A stretch of 64,000 nt of DNA from Tubulanus polymorphus. Lineage: Eukaryota; Animalia; Nemertea. The stretch is taken from positions 7,091,950 through 7,155,949 of the forward strand of contig NC_134026.1 in NCBI RefSeq assembly GCF_964204645.1, written 5' to 3'. How positions within the stretch are numbered: position 1 is the stretch's first letter; every line of letters begins with the position of its first letter. The position numbers and the translations under genes were made by a program. The notes below the pieces were generated by a model, which saw only the letters and a program-made list of their open reading frames with translations, was not told the origin of the DNA and did not search any database. Below are positions 16,306 through 50,700 of this stretch, one piece after another.

Positions 16306-17079
16306 ATGCGTTTGGTGATATTTCTATCAATCGCAACAATCGCGGTCGCCTCGGCGACGACGGAAAAGCACGGCGTCGTCAAGAATCGACGAGATCTCGC
16401 GGTAATCGACGAGAAGTTGCAAAACGAAAATCCGTTGAAAAGATCGAAACGTTCTCTTTGTTCGATCGAGGAGAATTTGACATCGGCTCTTCACCGATTG
16501 CGCGGTATTACTAAAATCATCAGGCTCAGAGAAAAACAGGTCTCCATATTCGGAACGACTGAATTAGCGGATGACCTGATCGATTTTGCGTTGGGAAAAT
16601 CCGGAACCGAATTAGCAATCAAGGATGTTATCGGACCGTTGTACGTGACCTATAAGATTGTGACCGGAGTTGAAAGTGAACCGTTGAAAGTGTTCGCAGT
16701 TCTTGATTTGATCAGAAGAGGTGGGCAAGTCGATTTGAAGGGAATTCTAGAAGATTTGGTCGCATTTGCTCTGAAAATCAAGCACATATCTTTTAACCCG
16801 CACAAAATCGAAGAGATGTTCAAAAAAGCTTTCAATGGACTCCGTGGCCATCCCCACCGAGCCCACCATAGACTCCGCGGCCACCGACACCGACACCGAC
16901 AGCGTCACCATCCCCATAGGCCCCATAGGCCCCACAGACCACATAGACCCCACAAACCGCACATGCCCCGTAAACCACATAAACCACATAAACCCCACAA
17001 ATTCCACCGATCACAAAGACAACGACATGGACATAAAGACAAGAAGACTAATAATATTCCAGGGAATGTGATGCCATAG
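16306..17079 (+). CDS. Secreted preproprotein C (257 aa): signal peptide, pro-region, RSKR site, lone Cys, helical core, His/Pro/Arg/Lys-rich tail
   Basis: 774-nt ORF; signal MRLVIFLSIATIAVASA; acceptor TTTCTTTCAG 7 nt before the ATG; AATAAA near 17106; PH(R/K) repeats. Confidence 0.88.
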   Translation: MRLVIFLSIATIAVASATTEKHGVVKNRRDLAVIDEKLQNENPLKRSKRSLCSIEENLTSALHRLRGITKIIRLREKQVSIFGTTELADDLIDFALGKSGTELAIKDVIGPLYVTYKIVTGVESEPLKVFAVLDLIRRGGQVDLKGILEDLVAFALKIKHISFNPHKIEEMFKKAFNGLRGHPHRAHHRLRGHRHRHRQRHHPHRPHRPHRPHRPHKPHMPRKPHKPHKPHKFHRSQRQRHGHKDKKTNNIPGNVMP

Positions 17080-21905: not shown

Positions 21906-24900
21906 TTATGATAAATCGATCGATAGTTGGGCTGATTGGCTGCGAGCTCTGTCGTGAACTTCAGACGTTCTCAAGGTCACGCCGAATATATCTTCATGAA
22001 AACGTCCATTATCCTGCGTAAAAACAAGAGAATTTACATTTTCAAAGTTACCCGGTATCCATGCTGAGAATACTTCAGGGTCCGTATTACGAAAAAGCTA
22101 AACTGTTTAATTTCCTGTTGGCTTAATTGCTTTGGTTTCTTAAAATTGTCAATGAGGACAATGATAAAAACTTTCAGACCGATTTCAGTATTATTAGTCC
22201 CATTAGAACATGCAGTTGATATCGTTTACACTTTTATCAAAAATGCATAAAGAAATTTAGGTATTTTTGCTTTTATGGATTTTCAGATAGAGTTGTACAA
22301 GAGCCTGTGTAAACCTGGTGTCGATTCAGTAAAATGAGACGGATTGTTCTTTGAAGGTAAGACGTATTCAGAGTACGAGAGCCTATGGGTAAATGAAGGG
22401 GTAATTTAGCGGATGAAGCTAATACGTATGTTGGACGAGTAGCAAAGGCTTATACTCTAAATTAATCTAGTTAACCTTCAAAGTACTATTTTTCTTACTA
22501 TTTACGTTTTATACATTTCCAGTTAAATTCTAATGGTATCAAAAATATAGTTATCAGAAGGAGTGGACACTGAAACATGAATGGACTATCCAGGGTGAAT
22601 TTAGTACTATCTGCTTACTCGCATATTCAATACGTAAGCCTTGGCCGCTTCGTTTGTCATATTGCCTTCTGATTGGATGATAAGTTCCAAGGTCGTTGTG
22701 ACGTCGGCCGCCATGGATACGTCACCGCAGACGTAAAAATGCCCGCCATTTTTGTGAATTGTTTTATAGATATTGGGTGCATTTCTCTTCAGGAGATGTT
22801 GTACATAGGTCTGAAATAAAAGAAAATAGGTCCGAGTTGAAAATATAGGTCAAAATACAAAAATTGTTATAGAAAATGGAAACACGACCTATCCCGACAG
22901 ATGGTTCGACTAAAATCGGCGTTACATAAGTCAAGGTTTTCATTGAACGTCCCTCATATCTAATATAAACAAAATGCTTGCAATTTTTTCATAGTGTTCA
23001 CTTTTCATAAGGGTAGACATGAATATGAGTATATGACACGACGACTTTGAAACTTAATTCACCTAAAATCTACAATCAAGTAAACAAATAACTGGACGAT
23101 GAAGAATGTTCTAAATGAGTAATCGAACGAACCTTTGGGATTCCGACCTCTCTGGATAGAGCGATGTGAACTGCATGAAGACTCTCTGTAGTAAGCGCAT
23201 TATCCGTTTCATCTTTAAACAATAAATCTACCGTTGATTGTCGACATCCGAAATATAACTCATAGTTCCCCCAACTCGAAGAATCTGCAACAATATAGTC
23301 AGATGTAATCATGAGAATTGAGAGTCCGATATGTTGAACAATGAAAGCATAGGCTTATAGAGGTGAAACGGGTAAGATGGGGATATGGGGGATGGGGAAG
23401 AGGGCTAGGGGTAGATTTGAGAGTAGGTGGAGGGATGGAGAGACAATAAGCAAAGACGAGGGTTGGTAATAGGAAAGATGGAGAGGGAAAGTGGGAAAGG
23501 GAGAGTGAAAAGAGGAGACGAGTGGGGGGAGAAAGAGATGGGGAGGAAAGTGAAAGGGAAAAGTAGGAGAGAGGAGGTTGTGAAGTAATACCTTCAATAT
23601 TGTTTCTATCGAATTCTCGTTGTTGCCAAAAACTTCTGAAAGGAGCGATACCGGTCCCCGGGCCGACCATTATTACCGGTCGACTGTGATCGTCTGGTAA
23701 ATGGAACGACGGAGCCCTGAAATAATACAACGAGTCAGACTGTAAAATGGTAAGACAATCTAAAAGAGAGTTAACTATTTTTTGATTGAAAGTCCTTTCA
23801 AGCCTTGGTTTTTGTGAAATTGATCCTGAAATGAAGAATTGTTTCTAAGCGTGTGGCGCCCTTGAAGGAAATCAGTTTTGAAAATGGCTAACAGAATTGA
23901 ATCTAAACGTCACTACTCTCTTAGTTCTAGAAATGGCTCATAGAATTGAGTCTCAACATCGGTACTCTCTTAGTTTTAAAAATGGTTCATAAAACTGAGT
24001 CTCAACACCACTACTATCGAATTGAGTCTAAACAATTGAGTCTAAACGTCACTGCTCTCTTAGTTCATAGTTGTTTTTTTTGATAATGATGATAATTTAT
24101 TTTCATTTAATTACGTTACACGATGAGGTTATTTTCACAGTTCGGAATAACTAGATGATCAAATTTTCCGAAGGTTTTTCTATTTGAAATAGAGACAGTC
24201 ACATGCCTATGGAAACTTTAACAACACTAAATGTCACTGATAATTGTTATACATATTTCATCTATATTTCGTATTTCTTTATTGTTTCATGTCTCCATCT
24301 TATTACTCATTGTCCTCTGAGACTGTTTGTCTGTGTCAGAATGTGTTAATTGTTGTTTGTCTCACTGTCATGTCACTACTCGTCACCTTTGTTTTTGTAT
24401 CATTTTCCATGTCTCAACCTGTCTGAATCTGTGTTATATAAATAGCTATGTGTAAAAATAAAGTCAGTTCCAGTTTTGGTATTCCAAACTGATAGTTCGC
24501 TCGTTACTCTTTCGCTCTGTTCCGGATTTCCGACGTCGACCATTCTTCGAGAATAGGACAGAAAATAGCGTTGCTAAATTGGTGTTAGAACCGGCGGGCA
24601 AGTTTTATATTCAACTGCCCGTATAAGATCCTGGTACCGCGCTCTCAACAGCTAGTTTTCCCCATCACGATGAATATTCTACCACCGGCAGTCGTAGTAA
24701 CCCTTCAAGAGGCTGGATACCACCAGGCACCTCAGAATTGGACTATTAATGCCGAGGAAGGATGTATCAAAGTTTCACTGACATGGACAGTCCAGTCATC
24801 GAAGCCATCGAAAGCGGTGAAATCGAAGTCTACTCTGAATCGGGACCGTAGACGTATGCAGGAATTCCTGAACCGAAGGATGCTGAAAACAGAAGTTCCG

Positions 24901-27900
24901 AAGTCAACGAAATCAGATAACGCTACCATGGACACAGCGGTCATGACTGTCAACGCGACTCATGATATAAGATCTCAGACAGTTGAGGACGTCATAACTA
25001 CCGCTGAAATAAAGAAATTGGAAGAAACTTCGCAGAAACTTTCAGGTGAACTTGTCGATTTGAAGGTCAATTTAGAATCAAAAGAAAGAACTATTATTGG
25101 ACAACAAAAAGAAATCTTTGGACTACAATCAAAATTGGATAAATTAAAAATGCGAAATTATCCTTGTCATTGCGCTAAAGATCCGAAAAACTCTCAAGCA
25201 TGCGAAGATACATTAACTGATATCGGTGATCTTTACGAAGCAGACCAACCGAAAATCATGGCTGCAAAACGATCAGGAATATTATATGAGGTCCGGGTGC
25301 AAGATCCAATCTCGAGAAAATACGCTGATTTCTTTGTGCACTGGGGACAATCATTATCATCAGTTTTCTATGACATTTTGAACAGATACGATTTGAATAT
25401 AAAATCATTCACCTATCGCGAACCAGATTCCAAAAATAAATGCTTGGACATTGATCGAAATACTTCATTGTGCTCGTTACATGAATCAGGAATCATCAAA
25501 CACTTATGGGATAAAAAGGGTAGAAATATAGTTTGGTTAGGAATGAGATTTTGATTAGCTTGTGAATGATCAATACTTTTAATTTGTATAAAAATAGTGT
25601 TCTCAAATTGATAATTCTTCATTAAATTCATTTCATCTAATTTTCGGGGACGAAAACTTTCAGAACGTAGTGGGGGAGGATTTAACAACACTAAATGTCA
25701 CTGATAATTGTTATACATATTTCATCTATATTTCGTATTTCTTTATTGTTTATGTCTCCATCTTATTACTCATTGTCCTCTGAGACTGTTTGTCTGTGTC
25801 AGAATGTGTTAATTGTTGTTTGTCTCACTGTCATGTCACTACTCGTCACCTTTGTTTTTGTATCATTTTCCATGTCTCAACCTGTCTGAATCTGTGTTAT
25901 ATAAATAGCTATGTGTAAAAATAAAGTCAGTTCCAGTTTTGGTATTCCAAACCGATAGTTCGCTCGTTACTCTTTCGCTCAATTCCGGATTTCCGACGTC
26001 GACCATTCTTCGAGAATAGGACAGAAAATAGCGTTGCTAAAAAACCACCTCGGATACCCGCGGTTCCCCGCTTTGCAGATCTCCAGTTGAGGAAACAGGG
26101 CGCAAGTTAAAGAGCAGCATCCTTGAACGATTCTGAAAGACGCTTGACATGCGCCCAGGAAGAACTGTGATTACTAGAATCTACTAAGGGCGATTCCGAA
26201 ACGAATGATGCAGCATTACAAGTTCCTTACCTCGGAATCAATTATGGCTAAATAGTTGAAAGGTTAACACACTGAATTGGCATGATAGAAGTTTTGGCTT
26301 TTTACTACGTTGCTGGTTGCTCTTCGGTTAAGGCTTCATTTAAACTGATGCTATTTTGACCTGTGCTTTCCCTGTATTGAACTGATTGATATTTTCCAAC
26401 CTTTTTTCAGATATTTTACCATAGAATATTTCACCATTTACTATGAATTCTTGTCCAACGTTTATTAATAGTTACGTTCATATTTTACACAATGATAAAC
26501 TTTCACAAAATCTGAGTAAATTGTGTTCAGATCATTACTTAATAAGATATTTCACCATTTACAATGAAATCTTGTACAACGAATATTCATGTCTGATTTA
26601 GTTACATTTGTATTTTGTATTTTATTATCATAAACTTTCAAAAATCTTATTGCATCAAATTTCTGAGAATTAATTTATCACTTGATGCAAAATATATATC
26701 TTACAAATGAATTGTAGCTGTAATAAAGACACAACTACGTTGAATTGATTTTCGAATACGCTACATGGTCAGTTCCAGAACATTCTCAGACAGCCAGCAC
26801 ACTCTCAGACAGTCAGCACACTCTCAGACAGAAGTGCATTCTCAGACAGTCAGTACACTCTCAGACAGACAGTACACGGTTAATCATCGTGAATCATGAA
26901 TTCAACTCAGATGCAAATTGGTCGAACTTATAACAGTTATATCATTTTGATGGGAATACCAAACAAGTCTGGAATCTACCGTACTGTGTCACTGGTCATT
27001 CTACCTGTCGTGTTCCTGTTTGGATCCTTTGGAAATGCAGCTACTTTCTGGATAATGATAAGTCGCAGATTTCGCAGTTTATCTTACGCTAACTATCTTA
27101 TTGCCTTGTCAGTCTGTGATTTCACGGTCTGTATCAATTATACATTGATGCCAGTTTTACAGTTTGTTCTCTTCCACGTCAATGGCGGTCCTATATTTAT
27201 CATGAATTCACTGGTCAGTTGTCAAATCTATGAATTTGTTATGATACTTGCATGCAGCAGCAGTTCGTGGTTTATAGTAGCAATATCTCTAGAACGTGCG
27301 GCAGTTGTGCTCTTCCCGTTTACATCTCGTTTGATATGTACACCGAAATTCGCTAGATTTGTTATATTGATAATTACTGCAGTGAATGCACTGGTTCTAT
27401 ATCTAAGCCCTGCTTTGTCACTACATTTTACTAATCGGCTTTTCGGTTGTTGCTATGAATTATTTGACCAAATAACATTTTTCTCCATATTTGTCACCCA
27501 AGTCTATATTATACCTTTAACCTTGATAATTACATCAAATACTCTAATAATAATTCAGTTATTCAGAGGTTCAAAAATAGTTTCGTCTGATCAGAAAAAT
27601 ACAAAATCAAAACGCACAACAATAATGCTTGTAACAGTTTCACTCGCATTTGCAATATTCACAATTCCAACCACTATTACTGTATTTCTAGCAATGGCTG
27701 AAGAAATAAAAAATTTTCTATATGACATATTTGTTCAGTTTCAAATGTGTAACTACGTGGTGAATTTTTACATATATCTTTTACTGGGACGAGAAATTCG
27801 CGAATATTTCTGTATGAAAGTCCGCTGTAGAAATTCTGTAAAGTAACCAGTGATTTCAATTCGACCACACCTAAATGGCAGACTAACTTACAAACTAGTA

Positions 27901-30900
27901 GTTAGCACACTGGACTAGCGATCCGCATTCCCCTCGTTCTTACTTAGTCTTTTTGATAGAAAATGGACAGAATATGTCTACTTGGAAAAAAGGAACTGTC
28001 CTTGTGAACTCCTGGCTACTGGACTGTGTATTTATGTGGTTGAATGATGAACTGATGTTATATTCACCTGTGTTTTTTCCCTATCTAGGACTGATAGATA
28101 TTTTCCAAACTGTTCAGATGTTTTACTATAACGTATTACACCATTTACAATGAATTCTTGTACAACGAATATTGACATTTAATTTAGTTACATCTTTATT
28201 TCACACAATAATTGACTTTCACAAAAATTGTGTTAGTTTTCTGAGAAGTTCAGTTCCAGTATATTCTCATACAGTCAGCACACTCTCCGACAGTCAGCTC
28301 ATTCTCAGACAGTCAGTACATTCTCAGACAGTCAGCGCACTCTCAGACAGTAAACAAACTGTGAGACAGTCAGAGTCTGAATGAGATGTCGAAGTGATTG
28401 CTCGTAGCTCAGACAGTCGGTACACACTTTCAGACAGTCGGTACCCTCTCCGACAGCCAGCACACTCTCAGACAGCCAGTACACTCTCAGACAGGCAGTG
28501 TACTCTCCGACAGATAGTTTCATTCGTTTTAGAGTCAATGCCTTTATTCACGTGCCACAGTTGCAGGATTCTGCAAGTTACAGGAAAATTGAATTTTAAT
28601 TTGTTAACTTACGTTCGTATGTGGCAATAAATATTTTCACCAATTTCTGCATCATTCAGCCAATTAGAACAGATTCCCCTGTGTATCGGACCAGTGCCAC
28701 CTATAGGATACAAAGTAACACTATAGAGAACATTTATGATATAAAATCTTAAAATTTCGACTACATCCGATGGTAGGATAGTGTTGTCTTTAGTGTTGAT
28801 ATATTTAAAACATTGTATGAACTATTAGCTCAAGGAAACATTTCGGACTTTTTTAATAGTTTCATAGTTTGCGTGTATTTTACATTATCTTTGACTCGGA
28901 ATGTTTCATCAATGGTCTTAAAAGTTGTATTCCTGAAGACGATTACAAGGATATAGTCGAAACGTCGGATAAGCACGGACTCAGATTGTTTTATACAATG
29001 GTAAACAAGAATATCTTATCTGATGAAATTAGTCCGGCAGTTTGGTGTATATTTTGAATAGAATGTGTCATCTCGACGAAAAGTACGAAATCTTCAGGAA
29101 TAGTAGAGAATGAAACAAGATAAGGGGCCAATTGAAGAATATACCATGTTACCTTGTGTCCTATATTCGACAACGGCTACAGTCATGTGAACCTCGGATG
29201 GATGAAGTTTAGGCGATGAACTGATGCTGTAAAATCGTTGCTGCAACAACGGAAGCTGAGACAATAATAAGGTAGCCGGCACCCGAATCGATGAGAACTC
29301 CTCCAGCAGTTCGAGAATATTCGGCGATTTCGTGTATTTCCAATCTTCGTATAATTTCGATTCCTATTTAGAAAAAAGAGTGATTTTTTAGTAGAACTTT
29401 GCTGGCTTTCTCTTAAATTTTATCGGCATTTTCAATTTATAAAGATTGGCCACTAGCAATGAAATTATCTGAAATAGTTTCATATTTCAACGCCCCCTGG
29501 TGAACATTACAGAAAGCAGTGACCTTGAAACCGGCGGCAACCAAAAAGGGTCATAAGCAACAATTCTGCAATTGATTGTGATTACGAAGAATCCATAGTT
29601 ACCAATATGGAAATTGTAACGTGTTTCAATATCCAATTTCAACCTTTTAGTGGCTACAATTGGCCATCTTGATTCCGACTGAACGAATTTTTGGGCCGCA
29701 GATGCGTTTATATTATGATACGATATATACATGCATTTGTATCAAGACAATATGCGTCAAAGCGTATCGAAAACTTCCCAAGAAAACTCAATTCTGTCTT
29801 CAGACGGACAGACCCTTTTCGGTGCATGTTTATCAACTGTATGTAGAGGCTAACGTAACTTCCTAAAAAGTTATCTTTGCTTCGTTAGAGTTTTCGAATC
29901 AAGATTCTTAAGAAGAAATTCTTGAAGAAATTGTTACCTTGACCAATCTTTCGATGACGTATTTCTCTTTATCGTCCGCAGCCAGTGGTAACAATTGTTG
30001 TAGGAACATAGGAGTTGGCGGAGAAGTGATGTCTATATAGTTAGTGAACGCTTTTCGCAGTGAACACACCGGAATTCGCTCATGTACTTTCCATGTCTTA
30101 GAAACACCTTTAAGATGACAAGTTTCATGAATGTATGGATTAATAAGATCATGGGGCTAGTTGCAAAGTCGAGGTTCAGATTTAAGACCAGTCTCAGCTT
30201 ATCGTGGTTCTATTCGCAACGTTGTGCTGACTTTGACTTGTCTAAGCCCCGTTACTGATCAAAACACGAATAGTCATAAGATATAAGGCGTTTCTTTTCA
30301 AATCTAGGTCCAGTTTCACCAAAACGGATTCAAACTCTCAAATCGATTTGATTGACAGGAATTGATAAAGCAATTAAGTCCGATTTCAGAGTTAAACCTT
30401 TTTATCAAATTTGAGCGGCCTGGGCCCAGTTTCATGAAATGTTGAGTTCGAATTGTTGTCCTCATTGAAAACACAAAGTAACCAAATCAGCAATTACACC
30501 AAAAATTTTAGTTAAACCTTTTTCGTGAAACTGGACCCTGGGTTTAGAGTTTTAGACTTTCCAAAAATTGACAATTTTGATGCAGGAAAGTTTAATGCTT
30601 CACGTACCAAACGGCGTCTGTATCTCTTCTAGAAATTCTAGTTTAACTGTCTGATCGACAGGCGGCGCGTTATGAAGTCTTTCGAGAATTGGTTGAACTA
30701 GATCACGTGGGTTGGAAGGGAATATACCGATATGATCTCCTGGTTTAAACGATAGTTCACCGCATTCAGACGTATCCAATTTAACTAGAATTGTTTGCCG
30801 ACTGAAAATAACAGAACAGAAAATAATATCGATCATCGATTGACACAACCACCATTTTGTTTACATTAAAACCATTTCATTTTGCTCTTAAGCATTGACT

Positions 30901-33900
30901 AGAGTTTTAATAAAAGCGAAGCAATCAGTGTTAAAGGATCCCTCCCAGATCCATATTTACAGAAAACTGCATATAATGAGGATTCTATGAAACTTTTAGG
31001 GTTTGATAAACTGCCCCAATCTCAGAAGGGTTACCCACTCATAGGGCCCATTTTAAAAAATGGTGGCCATTTCAAAGGAGGGGATCGGATGAGTATGTGA
31101 AAGAAACCAAAGATTCCTATTTTCAGAACCATCTCTTGATAGACTGATCATCCACGATATATTTTGTCGTATAGTTGATTAAATGTATACTGCTAGATAA
31201 TTGAAACCGTGATGAGAGTGGAATTGAGGACATATTCTTTCATGAGTAACCAACCTGGAGTCTGGCGCCTGCAAATTTGTCCTCGATTTCAATTTGCATG
31301 AAAACACTTGTTTATTGTGCACTCTTGACAAATCTAAAATATCAAAAACTTTTAGATAAAAAATCCAACTGCAAATGAAAATCGCACAAATGTTTACTGA
31401 TAGATTACCTATAGTGTCATCAGTTTGAGGAGTGTTGGCATCAATAGTCAGTCTGTATTTAGCTGCAGACCATGAGTTATCAGCGTTTGCGAAAGTACCT
31501 TCAACATCTCCCATATTTACATCGTCTCCTACACAGAATGTATCACAAGCCGCCTAAAACACACAATTTACTGTTCAATGATATTCCACTGAACAAAAAA
31601 AAAACCAAAATCAACTACAAAATGTTTCCATGAGCTAATATTCACATGACGTTTCGACTATATCTCGATAGTCATCTTCGGCAAAGATGACTGGAGATGA
31701 CTATTAGGATATAGTCGAAACGTCGAATGAATTGTAAGCTCTACGAAATATTTCGAACTTTTATTCTTATCGTGTAGGATTTTTATTTTCCTACACGGGA
31801 GTCTTTCATCAATGGTTAAAATGAGGCAACAATAGATTGCGTGTGTGTGCTGGTTTGAGCGCTGAAGTGCTGCTCCTTCGCTCCTGCAAAAACCTGATTC
31901 TACAGCCTCCCCAGGGCTTTCCCAACTACAGTTGTGTGGACTGTTTCATATATGTCAGGATAGTGTTTTTCGATTGGATTTATTGTTGGAATCTATCTTT
32001 GAAGTTTGGTTCATCAAATCTAGACAGCTTCGCAGCATTTAAAACTGGACTTAAAACATTTCTTTTTACCCGTCGATTCTGTACCGCTGGGGAGCGCCTT
32101 TGAACATTGATTACAGTGAAATCGGCGCTATACAAATATGAACATTCATTCATTCATTCATTCATTCATTCCTGAAGATGGATTTAAGGATAAAGTCGAA
32201 TCGTTGAATGAATCATCAGCTCAAGGAAACTGTTCAGATTCTTTATGATATTCCTATAGTGTGCACGGATTGTATATCATTTTCACAACACGGACCTTTT
32301 CACAACGCTCGAGCCAAATTTGGCCCGTGCCTAATTAGAGAGCGCTAACGATAAGTGCTTCATTTTCTATCATTCTTAGTCAAAGTAATATCTCACTTCC
32401 CTTGCACAGAAAACAATGCACTCACCCGGAAAACATTTTGAGCCCAGTTTCGGAACGACTCTTCCTGTCCGCACAGGTCATCACCTTCAGCTATCGGGTA
32501 TATTCTTTCAGCTCCTAGCTCCATCATTAGGCGATCCACGAAATGGCCGAACGAACAGAAATTAGGATACGCTCGTGACCCTAGAGCGAATACCCCGTAC
32601 CTTCAAAACATACGACATCACTATATTATATGACCGATTTAGACTGATATATATTCTCAGTTTTTCAAAGTTGATCCTGTTCCCGCCACTTCGTTGTGGT
32701 AGCATCTATATTTTAGAAAATACCGTCATTCCATTTTCGCTTTATTCTTTCGTTTAGTTAAAACCACTCGAAACGTAAAATCATAATCAATGTTTAGCTT
32801 ATCATCTTTATTATGGCCAACATATCATGGACACAGTTCCTTGGTACTTGGTTTGCAATTTGAAGGTTAAACATTAAAAAATAGAACTAAATCAAGAGAG
32901 ACAGTCTGGATTCGGTTGCACAGTGTGTCAGATGAATTCTGAAGTCAGTTCCACGGTTGTTTTGTTTCCGCCTATGAGTTTGCTTTTTATTCGACAGGGC
33001 TCTAAGTTATTTAGGCCAACATGCTTATCTCACGATTGGTAGAACACTATATCCGTGTTGACGCGATGAGGAGAGAATCCCACAATGATAATAAAAAGTC
33101 CGAAAAAGAAACTTCGAGATAGTAGTTTATTTCAACGTTTCGACTATATCCTAATAGTCATCTCCAGGAATATTCCTGGAGATGACTATTAGGATATAGT
33201 CGAAACGTTGAAATAAACTACTATCTCGAAGTTTCTTTTTCGGACTTTTTATTATCATTGTGGGATTCTCTCCTCATGCTTATCTCCCCAGGCGATTGTT
33301 GATGACTACGTATCTTGCCCATCAGATCTTCACTACTCCACGTTAATTGATTAATCGCACTAACTTTTTTTCATATACTTACACACAATTCCATCAGTAA
33401 AAAATCGATGCAAACGTGACCGAAATCAAAATATAGTCACCAGAAGAAAAACTTATTCATCTCATTTCTTTCTCATTGAATGTTAAATATAACTTAGATA
33501 TCTGTTTTTTTAAATGTTGTCTTACCGTACATTCGATAGTGGCGAATCTCCTAAATGAAGGATGTTGTGAGAAGCTGTTTTTTTGGGTGAACCTTGTTCA
33601 GAATCCGACAAATCTAAACTACTCATTCTTAAATACGACGATTGATTCATTTCCGTAGAACTGAAATGAATATATGAAAATTTCTTTATGAAATTCATCA
33701 TCAAGTCCCATTCCATGTAACAATAAAGAAAATCCTGAGGCCCGAAAAGGTGACTATTCAAAAAGAAAATTAAAAAGATTTCAAATATTTCAAAAAATCC
33801 CGTCATCTGTCGGTGTTTGGGCATTTCAACGACTGTATGACAGCTCTAAAGCATGCCCAGCGCGGAGAAGCCACCTTCGACTAGTTCGCCATCTAGCGGA

Positions 33901-43837: not shown

Positions 43838-43909
43838 GGTTCTATGGTGTAGTGGTTAGCACATTGGACTTTGAATCCAGTAGCCCGAGTTCGAATCTCG
43901 GTAGAACCT
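43838..43909 (+). tRNA. trnQ-UUG: tRNA-Gln (anticodon TTG)
   Basis: 72-nt cloverleaf: acceptor GGTTCTA/TAGAACC, D arm, anticodon stem TTGGA/TCCAG around loop CTTTGAA, T arm CCGAG-TTCGAAT-CTCGG; TTTT terminator at 43917-43920. Confidence 0.95.
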
Positions 43910-44644
43910 CGACTGCTTTTATGCTTTTGACAGTTTTCGCAATAATTCTCTCGAGTCCAAATATTTTTCTAATGTCGTCATTTATTTCACTTATTTTCAC
44001 TACGTTTCAGATTTTCGGGTTGTGAATGAATTAATAATGATGTATGTAGTAGTATATAGTAGAATACGTGAGACAAACGGTTTTACAATAAGTACCATCT
44101 CATATTGACATCGGGAGAGATTGTGTTGAGTAATTGAAGTTGTCTTGTTTCAATTGTAACGATTAGAAGTAAGTCTAATCTCGTGATACATTATGTATGA
44201 GTATTGTATCAGAAGACAGAGAGAAGAAGAGGGAGCGAGAGAGAGGGGAAGGGATGAGGAGAGAGCGAAGAGGCTTCTTGGTTATCATCAATAAATGATA
44301 ATGTTTCATTCTCAGTTATCGGGGAGTGATGTTGTTATGATATAAAGCGAGGAGAGGTGTCATCATCAGCTCTGATACTAATCGATATCTAGTGATACCG
44401 TTAATGATTATAACGCGTTCTATGGTTAATGATGCACTCGTGACGAGTTATAACTGCAACATCGCCCCGTCTTATTATATGAACTGTACGGTGTCTAGAC
44501 CAACCCGCCTGACCCTCACTATACTTACTAATAATCTTGCTTGCGACTGCTTCCTAATTGAATATGAGCGGGTAAATAGAAATATCATAAACCTTGAACC
44601 CAATTCAAGACGCGAATGCTTATATCAGGGATGTTGTACAAAGG

Positions 44645-47723: not shown

Positions 47724-50700
47724 TTATAATTCAGTGTCTATATCCGCGCACGTTGTTTCCACGGATTGCGCTTTTTCAGCCAAAAACGGTATGTACTCTT
47801 TTTGAATAGCGTGTTGTCTGGAAAGCGGCCGAGTTGCCACCGCCGGATTCTTCCTGCTGTTCGCCGTCGACTTTTCTTCGCTCAAAAGCGCGTCTTCCGC
47901 GTACCCGCCGTGATCGTGATGCAGAGTTGACCCGTTTCTTTCGCAGCGAGTTGTCTCCGTAACACTGATGCTACGACCGGGAGTTTTACCGGAGATTCCG
48001 CCGACTGTTTTACCTTTAGGGGTCGGCTTCACGCACGGTAACCAGCGGAACACGAATTTGAAACCTTCGCGAAATCTGTAAAAAATACTATCATACCAAT
48101 GACTGATAAACACTGTTGTAGGTAGTAGGGGAGACCGGGACACATTGGGCCACCATAAATCCTCCACCACAGCTGCAACAACGTCCCCGCTCCACCACCT
48201 TGCTATACTACCGTTGTATCAGCACTAGCCGAGATCACACAGAGACGTTTTGGTCTGGGCCAAATTGGCACGGATCAGGCTCGAGCCAAATTTGGCCCGT
48301 GCCTAATTAGAGAGCGTTAACGCGTACGACACTCGATAGTAAACAAGGCTCAAACATAGCGAAGTGGGTCATTTACGGAACAAGGTGCAATTCAAACGCA
48401 ATCATTTTGTCCTCTGCTAAGATTTGGCTCGGGCCTGGTACGCCATTTTTGGTTGGGCCAGACAGGCACGGGCCCCATGGCACCCGTGTGCACAGCTGTT
48501 CCGGGCCAAATTTGGCCCGGGCCAAAACGCTCGTAGGATCGCGACTTATATATCCTAATAGACATAGACATTTTCGGTAATACGGACGAACACATTTTTC
48601 TATTTCACATGTATAGTGTGGTATTGTCAGTCGAAAATGTTTTCTTTTTATTCAACGATTCGGCTATGTCGTTATATCATCCCTTAATTAAGACGACTAT
48701 TATAGGATAAAGTTGAAACGTTGAATAAACTGCTAACATTTTTCATTCTCGTATAGGTATAGGTTGGATTTAATACCATCTTTTACGACACATACTCCGA
48801 GCGTTTCATCAATGATTTAATGTAGTAGTGCAGAATGTTACGAGTAATTGTCGCGATGAAAAATTCATAGACTTTAGACTATTTTCCACCTACCTGGAGT
48901 TCATCCAGCAATAAATGAACGGGTTGTACATGGAATTACTCATAGCGATCCAGTAAATGACCAGATAGATGTACTGCGAATGTTGCTGTACTGTGATCGA
49001 CGGTTTGACAGTCGTTATAACGAAATATAAGTGTTGAGGCAACCAACAAATGGCGAATAGAAACACAACGACTATCAACATTTTAACAACCTGGAAAATT
49101 GAGAGAAAGAGAGAGAGTGGTTGAATATTAGAAATCGTCGGATTTCTAGATGTCACGAGACACAACAGAAATTGTGAAATATATAAACTACGATGCAGAA
49201 CAATTTACAATTTCACAATTTTCCGTTGTATCTCAGCAATCCTGAAGATGACTATCAGTTTATAGTCGAAAGTTGAATAAAACTACCAGCTCAAGGAAAC
49301 ATATTCGGTTATTTGTTTCTTATGGTGGCTGATAAGGGCCATAGCGTAAAATTCCTGGTATGTAAATGAGGGCGCCAGAACGCCAGAACGCCAAAACGAA
49401 AAAAAACGTCCAAATTTCTCTAAAAGTATATATAACAGTAGTTTATAGTTTCTATAACAGTATTTACTAGATCTTAACTCATGTAGGGCCGAGGATCCAA
49501 ATCTCAGGGTTAAATTTCAGTTGAAATTAGAGCATTTTCAATGCTTTTGTTCTAGAGCCGAATATTATTATTAATTATGGTGGCCGTTTTTCGTTGTTTT
49601 GGCGGGGGCGCCAAAACGAAAGTTCGTTTTGGCGGGGGCGCCAAAATGAAAGTTCGTTTTGGCGGGGGCGCCAAAATGGAATTTTCTCCATTTTGGCGCG
49701 CAAAAACGAACTTTCAGAGAAAATTGGACGTTTTTCGTTGTTTTGGCGGGCGCGCCAAAATGAAAGTTCGTTTTGGCGGGCGCGCCAAAACGAACTTTCA
49801 GAGAAAATTGGACGTTTTTAGTTGTTTTGGCGGGGGCGCCAAAACGAAAGTTCGTTTTGGCGGGGGCGCCAAAATGGAATTTTCTCCATTTTGGCGCGCA
49901 AAAACGAACTTTCAGAGAAAATTGGACGTTTTTCGTTGTTTTGGCGGGCGTGCCAAAATGAAAGTTCGTTTTGGCGGGCGCGCCAAAACGAACTTTCAGA
50001 GAAAATTGGACGTTTTTAGTTGTTTTGGCGGGGGCGCCAAAACGAAAGTTCGTTTTGGCGGGCGCACCAAAACGGAATTTTCTTTGTTTTGGCGCGCCAA
50101 AACGAACTTTTAGAGAAAATTGGACGTTTTTTTCTCTTTGGCGTTCTGGCGTTCTGTCGCCCTCATTTACATACCAGGAATTTTACGCTATGGCCCATAT
50201 CAGCCACCATAGTTAATAATATTCGGCTCTAGAACAAAAGCATTGAAAATGCTCTAATTTCAACTGAAATTTAACCCTGAGATTTGGATCCTCGGCCCTA
50301 CATGAGTTAAGATCTAGTAAATACTGTTATACATTGGACCTGCTTTGATAGACCTCTGGACCTAGTTCTTTTTGGTCCCGGGTCCACAGTTCTCCACAGT
50401 CCACAATCGACCAATCAGAATTTGACTGTGGAGTAAAAAACATAAAAACAAAATGTGCGTATCTCGTATTTTTTGATAAAGTCAGATTCTACAAATATCT
50501 TTGAGATTCGCTCGAGAACCGCGGTTCAATAGGAACCACTATTCCACGTCGGTTAAGTCTGACTGAGTAAAACTTAAGTTAAACTACTAAGTTCAGTGAA
50601 ACTCTACCGTCATCCAAATCATGGCTTACACTTTAAGTAAATCGAAATGGAAATAAACGAATCGGGACTAAAAAAATCGAGACGATTTCAATAATGTGAC

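Follow-up and report, generated by a model that had tools for sequence, protein, structure and literature searches.

Within a 64,000-nucleotide stretch of the Tubulanus polymorphus genome (Nemertea; assembly GCF_964204645.1, contig NC_134026.1, positions 7,091,950 to 7,155,949 of the forward strand; hereafter the window, to which coordinates refer), we find a 1,825-bp non-autonomous long terminal repeat (LTR) retrotransposon, here called the mini-element, that lies antisense within an intron of the nitric oxide synthase (NOS) gene and has a 294-residue open reading frame (ORF) as its sole gene. Codon comparisons between diverged subfamilies show purifying selection on this ORF along the element lineage, with single insertions left to decay. 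The enzymes for its copying very probably come from a clade of envelope (env)-carrying Gypsy elements, and the C-terminal part of its protein probably adopts a beta-grasp fold.

Architecture and spread of the mini-element

All features of the mini-element lie on the plus strand of the window, the NOS gene being on the minus strand. A 4-bp target-site duplication (TSD), AAAC, flanks it on the left (24213..24216) and on the right (26042..26045). The 362-bp 5′ LTR (24217..24578) has the non-canonical ends TTTAAC...GCTAAA in place of TG...CA, and differs from the 3′ LTR (25681..26041) at four points, three substitutions and one deletion. A TATA box (24435), an AATAAA (24457) and an initiator-like TCAGT (24464), which together occupy 24435..24468, are spaced as fits an RNA polymerase II promoter with a predicted start near 24466; on these motifs the LTR would be transcribed, and a further AATAAA is found at 25920 in the 3′ LTR. 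The 5′ LTR is followed by a primer-binding site (PBS; 24580..24600) for host tRNA-Ala, imperfect in this copy, and by the ORF (24670..25554), whose ATG is the first downstream of the predicted start. A hairpin, TTTTCG-GGGA-CGAAAA (25641..25656), and a polypurine tract (PPT; 25667..25680), assigned from its sequence, precede the 3′ LTR. The ORF takes up 885 of the 1,102 nt between the LTRs, and its frame is open for 321 codons; in 500 shuffled versions of the internal region the median is 79 and the longest 164. Two LTRs, a TSD, a PBS and a PPT, together with multiple independent insertions and the lack of reverse transcriptase (RT) and integrase, place the mini-element among the non-autonomous LTR retrotransposons. 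It had originally been described as TRIM-sized, a label that we abandon: terminal-repeat retrotransposons in miniature (TRIMs) are classically miniature and non-coding, and 1.8 kb with a selected 294-residue ORF exceeds that class.

In the 268-Mb genome (77 contigs), a DNA search gave at least 42 matches from 40 of the 131 candidates scored, and a search at the protein level returned 24, spread over ~17 loci. Three copies, on different contigs and each with its own TSD, are intact and ~99% identical; others carry stops or frameshifts. TSDs of 4 bp flank 21 of the 30 LTR-bearing loci examined and thereby fix the element boundaries, the nine loci without one being truncated, tandem or mutated copies; solo LTRs make up 19 of the 30. 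The PBS is complementary to the end of host tRNA-Ala genes (26 genome matches to the pattern, with four of eight scanned loci called as tRNA-Ala). In copy L003 this complement is exact over 18 nt (18/18), and 4 of the 14 differences between L003 and the otherwise ~99% identical window copy fall within the PBS. Reverse transcription primed by a tRNA re-copies the PBS from the primer, and this concentration of differences is its expected trace. The mini-element is young and has recently spread.

Rearranged copies with junctions at the PBS were also seen. At L058/L049 (G000:C1:23144011), the PBS follows tRNA-Ala for ~21 nt, after which the sequence switches into the ORF where 4 nt match, a junction that resembles primer read-through followed by aberrant strand transfer. 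At L063/L064 (G000:C6:12642491), two LTR ends are joined head-to-head via their PBS sequences in an inverted repeat.

Subfamilies and purifying selection

The window copy belongs to subfamily A, and three diverged subfamilies, B, C and D, encode proteins with 44-65%, 57% and 39% amino-acid identity to it, respectively. Ratios of non-synonymous to synonymous substitution (dN/dS) were obtained by Nei-Gojobori counts and are approximate, because they rest on tblastn alignments and on dS values close to saturation. Comparisons between subfamilies give dN/dS of 0.10-0.26, with values of 0.20 for the window copy against subfamily B (bootstrap 0.10-0.33) and 0.15 against D; against C, dS is saturated and dN is 0.28. 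The predicted beta-grasp part is the most conserved region between subfamilies (dN/dS 0.10-0.15 for the window copy against B). Most comparisons of dead copies inside a subfamily fall at 0.80-1.05. Low ratios between subfamilies combined with near-neutral dead copies indicate selection for the element lineage and not for host loci. The original prediction suggested that the protein helps the element or the host and proposed dN/dS among copies as a check: the benefit to the element agrees with the selection between subfamilies, the benefit to the host does not agree with near-neutral decay that leaves three intact copies, and the expected signal appears between subfamilies but not in the many dead copies, at ~0.8-1.

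The LTRs of the subfamilies are 78-90% like the window LTR despite nearly saturated synonymous sites, a pattern that suggests exchange of LTRs between subfamilies. At one locus, an A unit and a B unit stand in tandem around one LTR; the dN/dS rows for the tandem locus L050 come from its subfamily A unit and were excluded as subfamily B data.

The protein and its predicted C-terminal fold

The original prediction described an intact 294-residue ORF filling most of the internal region, without gag or pol motifs, with a coiled coil, a small Cys cluster and a ubiquitin/SUMO-like C-terminal region that lacks a di-Gly end. The ORF and the motifs quoted for it are present as described. Pfam searches returned no gag or pol domain and no other family, only weak coiled-coil matches (E 0.03 and 0.27), and comparisons with helper Gag proteins were also negative. 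Residues 1-41 (24670..24792) form an alpha-beta-beta module that subfamilies B and D conserve as well, followed by a basic 'T.xRD..R' helix (residues 42-75; 24793..24894) with 11 Lys/Arg and three Asp/Glu, weakly like that of the sister mini-elements described below. The coiled coil (residues 111-163; 25000..25158) is clear, with a heptad register from I114 and hydrophobic residues at 11 of 15 a/d positions. The Cys cluster is missing from the translations of subfamilies B, C and D and is not conserved, and a role for it is not supported. The first 100 residues, conserved in A, B and D, could not be modelled with confidence; a single-sequence model of the full-length protein has beta-rich ends and one long helix at a predicted local distance difference test (pLDDT) score of 45. 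Matches of the N-terminal 100 residues to alpha/beta sandwiches (phage tail terminators and permuted S6; Z 6.3-7.2) were not trusted at this pLDDT of 45.

Residues ~204-290 (25279..25539) probably adopt a beta-grasp (ubiquitin-like) fold, as judged from an AlphaFold2 model of residues 194-294 built with eight natural sequences (pLDDT 57; predicted template modelling score, pTM, 0.50), in which the elements run in the order beta-beta-alpha-beta-beta-alpha-beta. In a VIA fold search of 48,161 chains, 43 of the 50 top rows are, judged by titles, beta-grasp proteins of the ubiquitin/SUMO type. The best, at Z 6.0, are the ubiquitin-like (Ubl) domain of TINCR and SUMO, with a root-mean-square deviation of 2.2-2.4 Å over 64-66 residues; the NFATC2IP Ubl domain scores 5.6 and SUMO-like domain (SLD) 2 of Rad60 5.2. 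A viral fold library gave no significant match, and its best probabilities went to ubiquitins. SUMO, ubiquitin, Hub1, FERM-F0 and others are tied within ~1 Z unit, and we see no ground in the model to prefer SUMO over other Ubl domains. The ubiquitin-like half of the original assignment is thus retained at moderate confidence, and the SUMO-specific half is not. The protein ends in ...WLGMRF and its relatives in GMRLD or GMRLGIK, so that the di-Gly end is lacking as predicted and the protein is not a conjugated modifier. No ubiquitin-fold retroelement protein turned up in the searches made here.

Outside this genome, a full-length word-indexed search found no homologue among 432 candidates, domain alignments against longer proteins found none (0 of 7,992 and 0 of 700), none of 181 metagenome stretches matched, and PDB sequences gave nothing below E 0.27. 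We disregarded the single match returned by phmmer over 1.84 billion representatives, a repetitive one of low identity at residues 84-129. This lack of outside homologues is weak evidence, as the collections are thin for invertebrate transposable element (TE) proteins.

Env-carrying Gypsy elements as likely helpers

Through a search with the 3′ motif, which gave 16 matches, we arrived at a Gypsy element that encodes RT, RNase H, integrase and a Baculo_F envelope (Pfam E 1e-13), and we examined 20 such helper regions from the top of 104 integrase matches. In all five elements inspected closely, the TSDs are 4 bp long and the termini are of the unusual mini-element type (TTTAGCAAC..ATTAAA, TTTAACAAT..GTTAAA, TTTAGCAAG..TTGCTAAA and TATAAC..GTTACA), and helper PBSs are mostly for tRNA-Ala. 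Subfamily B and one helper share 58 nt at 90% identity across the LTR end, PBS and leader (E 2e-13). The hairpin of the mini-element, which recurs in helper Gypsy elements and sister mini-elements, comprises a covarying 6-8-bp stem with compensatory changes and an NGGA loop, 18-24 nt upstream of the 3′ LTR, in all five mini-element ends and 8 of 11 helper ends. The mini-element thus shares termini, TSD length, primer and a 3′ cis hairpin with the env-carrying Gypsy clade, and this clade, not one particular family within it, is very probably the helper. In another helper family the gag, pol and env frames are all open and the LTRs are 99.7% identical. The possibility that homologues of the ORF occur as extra ORFs in autonomous Gypsy elements is not borne out: family profiles found no relative in the 20 regions, the best E being 0.23 over 761 ORF pieces.

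These elements show several further rearrangements. At L080:3058-8290, the gag-to-RT part of an env-Gypsy element is joined directly to a mini-element PPT and LTR at a microhomology, either by template switching between co-packaged RNAs or by genomic deletion. Helper LTRs at L206-L207, L195-L196 and L201-L203 carry internal duplications around GT..AG-bounded segments, and the 5′ and 3′ LTRs of one element may differ by such a segment, as if an LTR intron were sometimes lost in copying. At L201-L203 (G000:C8:7.29-7.32 Mb) and L199-L200, one env-Gypsy family forms a head-to-tail tandem with three LTRs and two internal units, and one copy lies inside a 118-bp satellite array.

Sister mini-elements

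At least three further single-ORF families have a tRNA-Ala-type PBS (L084; L236-L238; L246/L253), and L084 and L236-L238 have LTR pairs with termini of the mini-element type. Their proteins carry zinc knuckles that match those of helper-clade Gag (E 1.6e-6 and 3.7e-6), and after these come a basic RD helix and a coil. A profile of the sister helix scores residues 50-70 of the window protein above 999 of 1000 shuffles, which is suggestive only of kinship between the two basic helices.

Short tRNA-Ala-PBS elements with one non-enzymatic ORF of this layout (knuckle, basic RD helix, coiled coil) were seen at L084:2115-4902, L236-L238, L246/L253, L269/L270 and L277. The 467-residue L238 protein has an extra C-terminal domain that is beta-grasp-like by eye only; hhalign gave it a probability of 0.4 and a PDB search no match.

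Genomic setting

The mini-element lies between an NOS reductase exon at 23587..23759 (minus strand; bounds approximate) and an exon near 29150-29300. Three read sets give even coverage of introns, as DNA would, and one run presumed to be RNA gives almost none. Nested antisense in the same intron is an intronless ORF for a rhodopsin-family G-protein-coupled receptor (26896-27846, plus strand; 7tm_1 E 8e-19). Elsewhere in the window are a 257-residue ORF (16306-17079, plus strand) that starts like a signal peptide, has dibasic sites and ends in a tail rich in His, Pro and Arg, for which a Pfam search gave no match; a perfect palindrome with 106-bp arms within a highly repeated segment (33066-33277); a tRNA-Gln(TTG) called by ARAGORN (43838-43910, plus strand); and a repeat array with long inverted arms (49321-50331).

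Discussion

We favor a model, whose chances we judge to be evenly balanced, in which the mini-element is a helper-mobilized satellite and its ORF encodes an RNA-binding, oligomerizing adaptor that docks toward helper particles through its predicted Ubl domain. The LTR would drive a ~1.5-kb RNA serving as both message and genome; the protein may bind this RNA through its basic N-terminal part and multimerize through the coil, and the beta-grasp domain may dock on helper Gag or on host transport factors. Env-carrying Gypsy elements of the same genome would then copy and integrate the mini-element, whose RNA would gain a larger share of helper particles. That packaging or export is the step helped is tentative, and we put it somewhat below an even chance. 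The protein presumably acts in cis, because a cis benefit best explains selection on a helper-dependent element.

Several observations weigh against this model and its parts. The window protein has no zinc knuckle, and its link to the sister helix is weak, with an hhalign probability of 0.5 and E 0.12; 21 of 1000 shuffles reach the profile score of subfamily B and 593 of 1000 that of subfamily D. The hairpin was first spotted by eye and put to a shuffle test afterwards, it is missing from 3 of 11 helper ends, and the leader of the mini-element folds no better than shuffles (z 0.04). Besides the approximate nature of the dN/dS ratios, four comparisons within subfamily A are also low (0.27-0.57), and the three intact copies differ by just two to three non-synonymous changes. 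The C-terminal model, from eight sequences, is middling in both pLDDT and pTM, and its best Z is below 8. Foldseek returned the same kind of match at a non-significant level (E 0.097 or worse), searches of Pfam and PDB sequences found no ubiquitin, and Atlas leads are weak (0.76-0.79), the Rad60-SLD lead for residues 193-294 scoring 0.76 with no Pfam match. Subfamily D is without the C-terminal domain, so the predicted beta-grasp is not universal.

With the same element and helpers, the protein might instead counter silencing of the element, with the basic helix as a signal for the nucleus or for DNA binding and a beta-grasp domain that mimics SUMO or an SLD. SUMO and SUMO-like chains occupy many top structural rows, Rad60-SLD is the Atlas lead (0.76) for residues 193-294, and integral SUMO-like domains likewise lack di-Gly; the SUMO rows, however, are tied with rows for ubiquitin, Hub1, FERM-F0 and MCU-NTD at identities of 9-15%, and the beta2-alpha1 stretch, by eye, lacks the basic residues that in SUMO belong to the groove for SUMO-interacting motifs. 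A TE-encoded anti-silencer, VANC, is a precedent in the accessible part of PMC13547354; a blocker acting in trans would also aid free-riders and would fit selection on a small satellite less well, and we consider this role unlikely. Less likely still is interference in the style of a satellite virus, in which the protein binds helper Gag or export machinery and diverts it from helper RNA or limits the helper. Several unrelated coding mini-elements share a single primer and helper clade, implying that they compete for particles, and a coiled coil with a docking domain would suit a dominant partner, but the protein has no similarity to helper Gag and the mechanism overlaps with the favored one.

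That the ORF is a Gag diverged beyond recognition, making the mini-element an animal TR-GAG, is very unlikely. The ORF does occupy the gag position directly after the PBS, sister mini-elements retain Gag-type knuckles, and plant single-gag elements below 4 kb are on record in the accessible part of PMC4350172; on the other side stand the negative profile comparison (best E 0.23 in 761 ORF pieces from 20 helper regions), the absence of a knuckle, and beta-rich ends with one long helix in the full-length model (pLDDT 45) where a capsid would be all-helical. We give hardly any credence to a domesticated or protective gene carried for the host's benefit: a conserved gene does have an intact copy in one of its introns and the ORF is conserved, but no fixed single-copy version was found in the genome, and the intact copies are all young with TSDs while older ones have stops and frameshifts. 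Equally improbable is an origin of the ORF in a fragment taken from the host, or in the remnant of a BEL/Pao 3′ accessory gene, with youth alone keeping the frame open. Examination of all 24 genome matches to the protein turned up no host gene, and a dN/dS far below 1 in comparisons where dS is saturated rules out youth alone. At locus L086 a degenerate BEL gag-protease adjoins a subfamily C ORF, but this locus is a chimera formed by nesting or deletion, since the closest BEL relative lacks any such ORF and has a 5-bp TSD and LTRs with TG..CA ends. The mini-element itself has neither TG..CA LTRs nor a 5-bp TSD, and a BEL/Pao origin is largely refuted.

Among known systems, the TR-GAG elements of plants, as presented in the available portion of Chaparro et al. 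2015 (PMC4350172), are non-autonomous LTR elements of less than 4 kb with one ORF and recent activity. The mini-element is likewise small, single-ORF and recently active, but the plant ORF is a recognizable Gag and the class is defined by Gag homology, whereas ours has neither a Pfam gag nor a helper Gag match and has a predicted beta-grasp end, in an animal element with non-TG/CA termini. In the part of PMC13570524 consulted, a continuum between TRIMs and large retrotransposon derivatives includes a 1.5-4 kb size class without a name of its own; such elements also retain LTRs, PBS, PPT and TSD and borrow their enzymes, but are non-coding or carry gag/pol remnants, in contrast to the selected gene of another kind found here. 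By gene content, with gag, pol, F-type env and a tRNA PBS, the likely helpers resemble the metazoan 'ancient errantiviruses' of PMC13524379; the finding here concerns a satellite, not a helper, and the word 'non-autonomous' does not occur in the main text of that article. The CERV protein of the Caenorhabditis elegans element Cer1, as far as the consulted sections of PMC10309623 go, is a Gypsy protein restricted to its lineage that combines a leucine zipper with a globular fold like that of host proteins, is predicted to form multimers, and is needed for export of Cer1 RNA. CERV arises by splicing from an autonomous element and has a G-protein-like domain; we take it by analogy as a functional precedent for an RNA-handling accessory protein, with no homology expected. 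Integral SUMO-like domains (Rad60/NIP45 SLD) and other Ubl domains resemble the beta-grasp predicted here in lacking di-Gly, but show no sequence match and tie with many beta-grasp families. Non-TG/CA termini are known elsewhere, as in Troyka (PMC12440569, consulted in part). The literature covered, to which most subscription journals and Repbase did not belong, holds no account of such elements, nor of any non-autonomous LTR element with a ubiquitin-like domain.

A broader picture, possible though doubtful, is a guild of coding satellites living on env-Gypsy elements as satellite viruses would on a retrovirus: at least four unrelated families would share the helper's primer and cis-signals, each with a basic helix and a coiled coil, and the acquired ubiquitin/SUMO-like domain of the window protein would hijack helper particles or SUMO-dependent silencing. 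Non-autonomous LTR elements are usually taken as non-coding passengers or gag-only remnants. Here a passenger carries a non-gag gene under long-term selection, its LTRs apparently swapped between subfamilies whose synonymous sites are saturated, and several other coding passengers have the same helper clade, one that resembles endogenous retroviruses. The covarying hairpin upstream of the PPT offers a compact, testable cis-signal for this helper clade, and the protein, if the favored model is true, would be a factor by which a hyperparasite wins packaging or escapes silencing.

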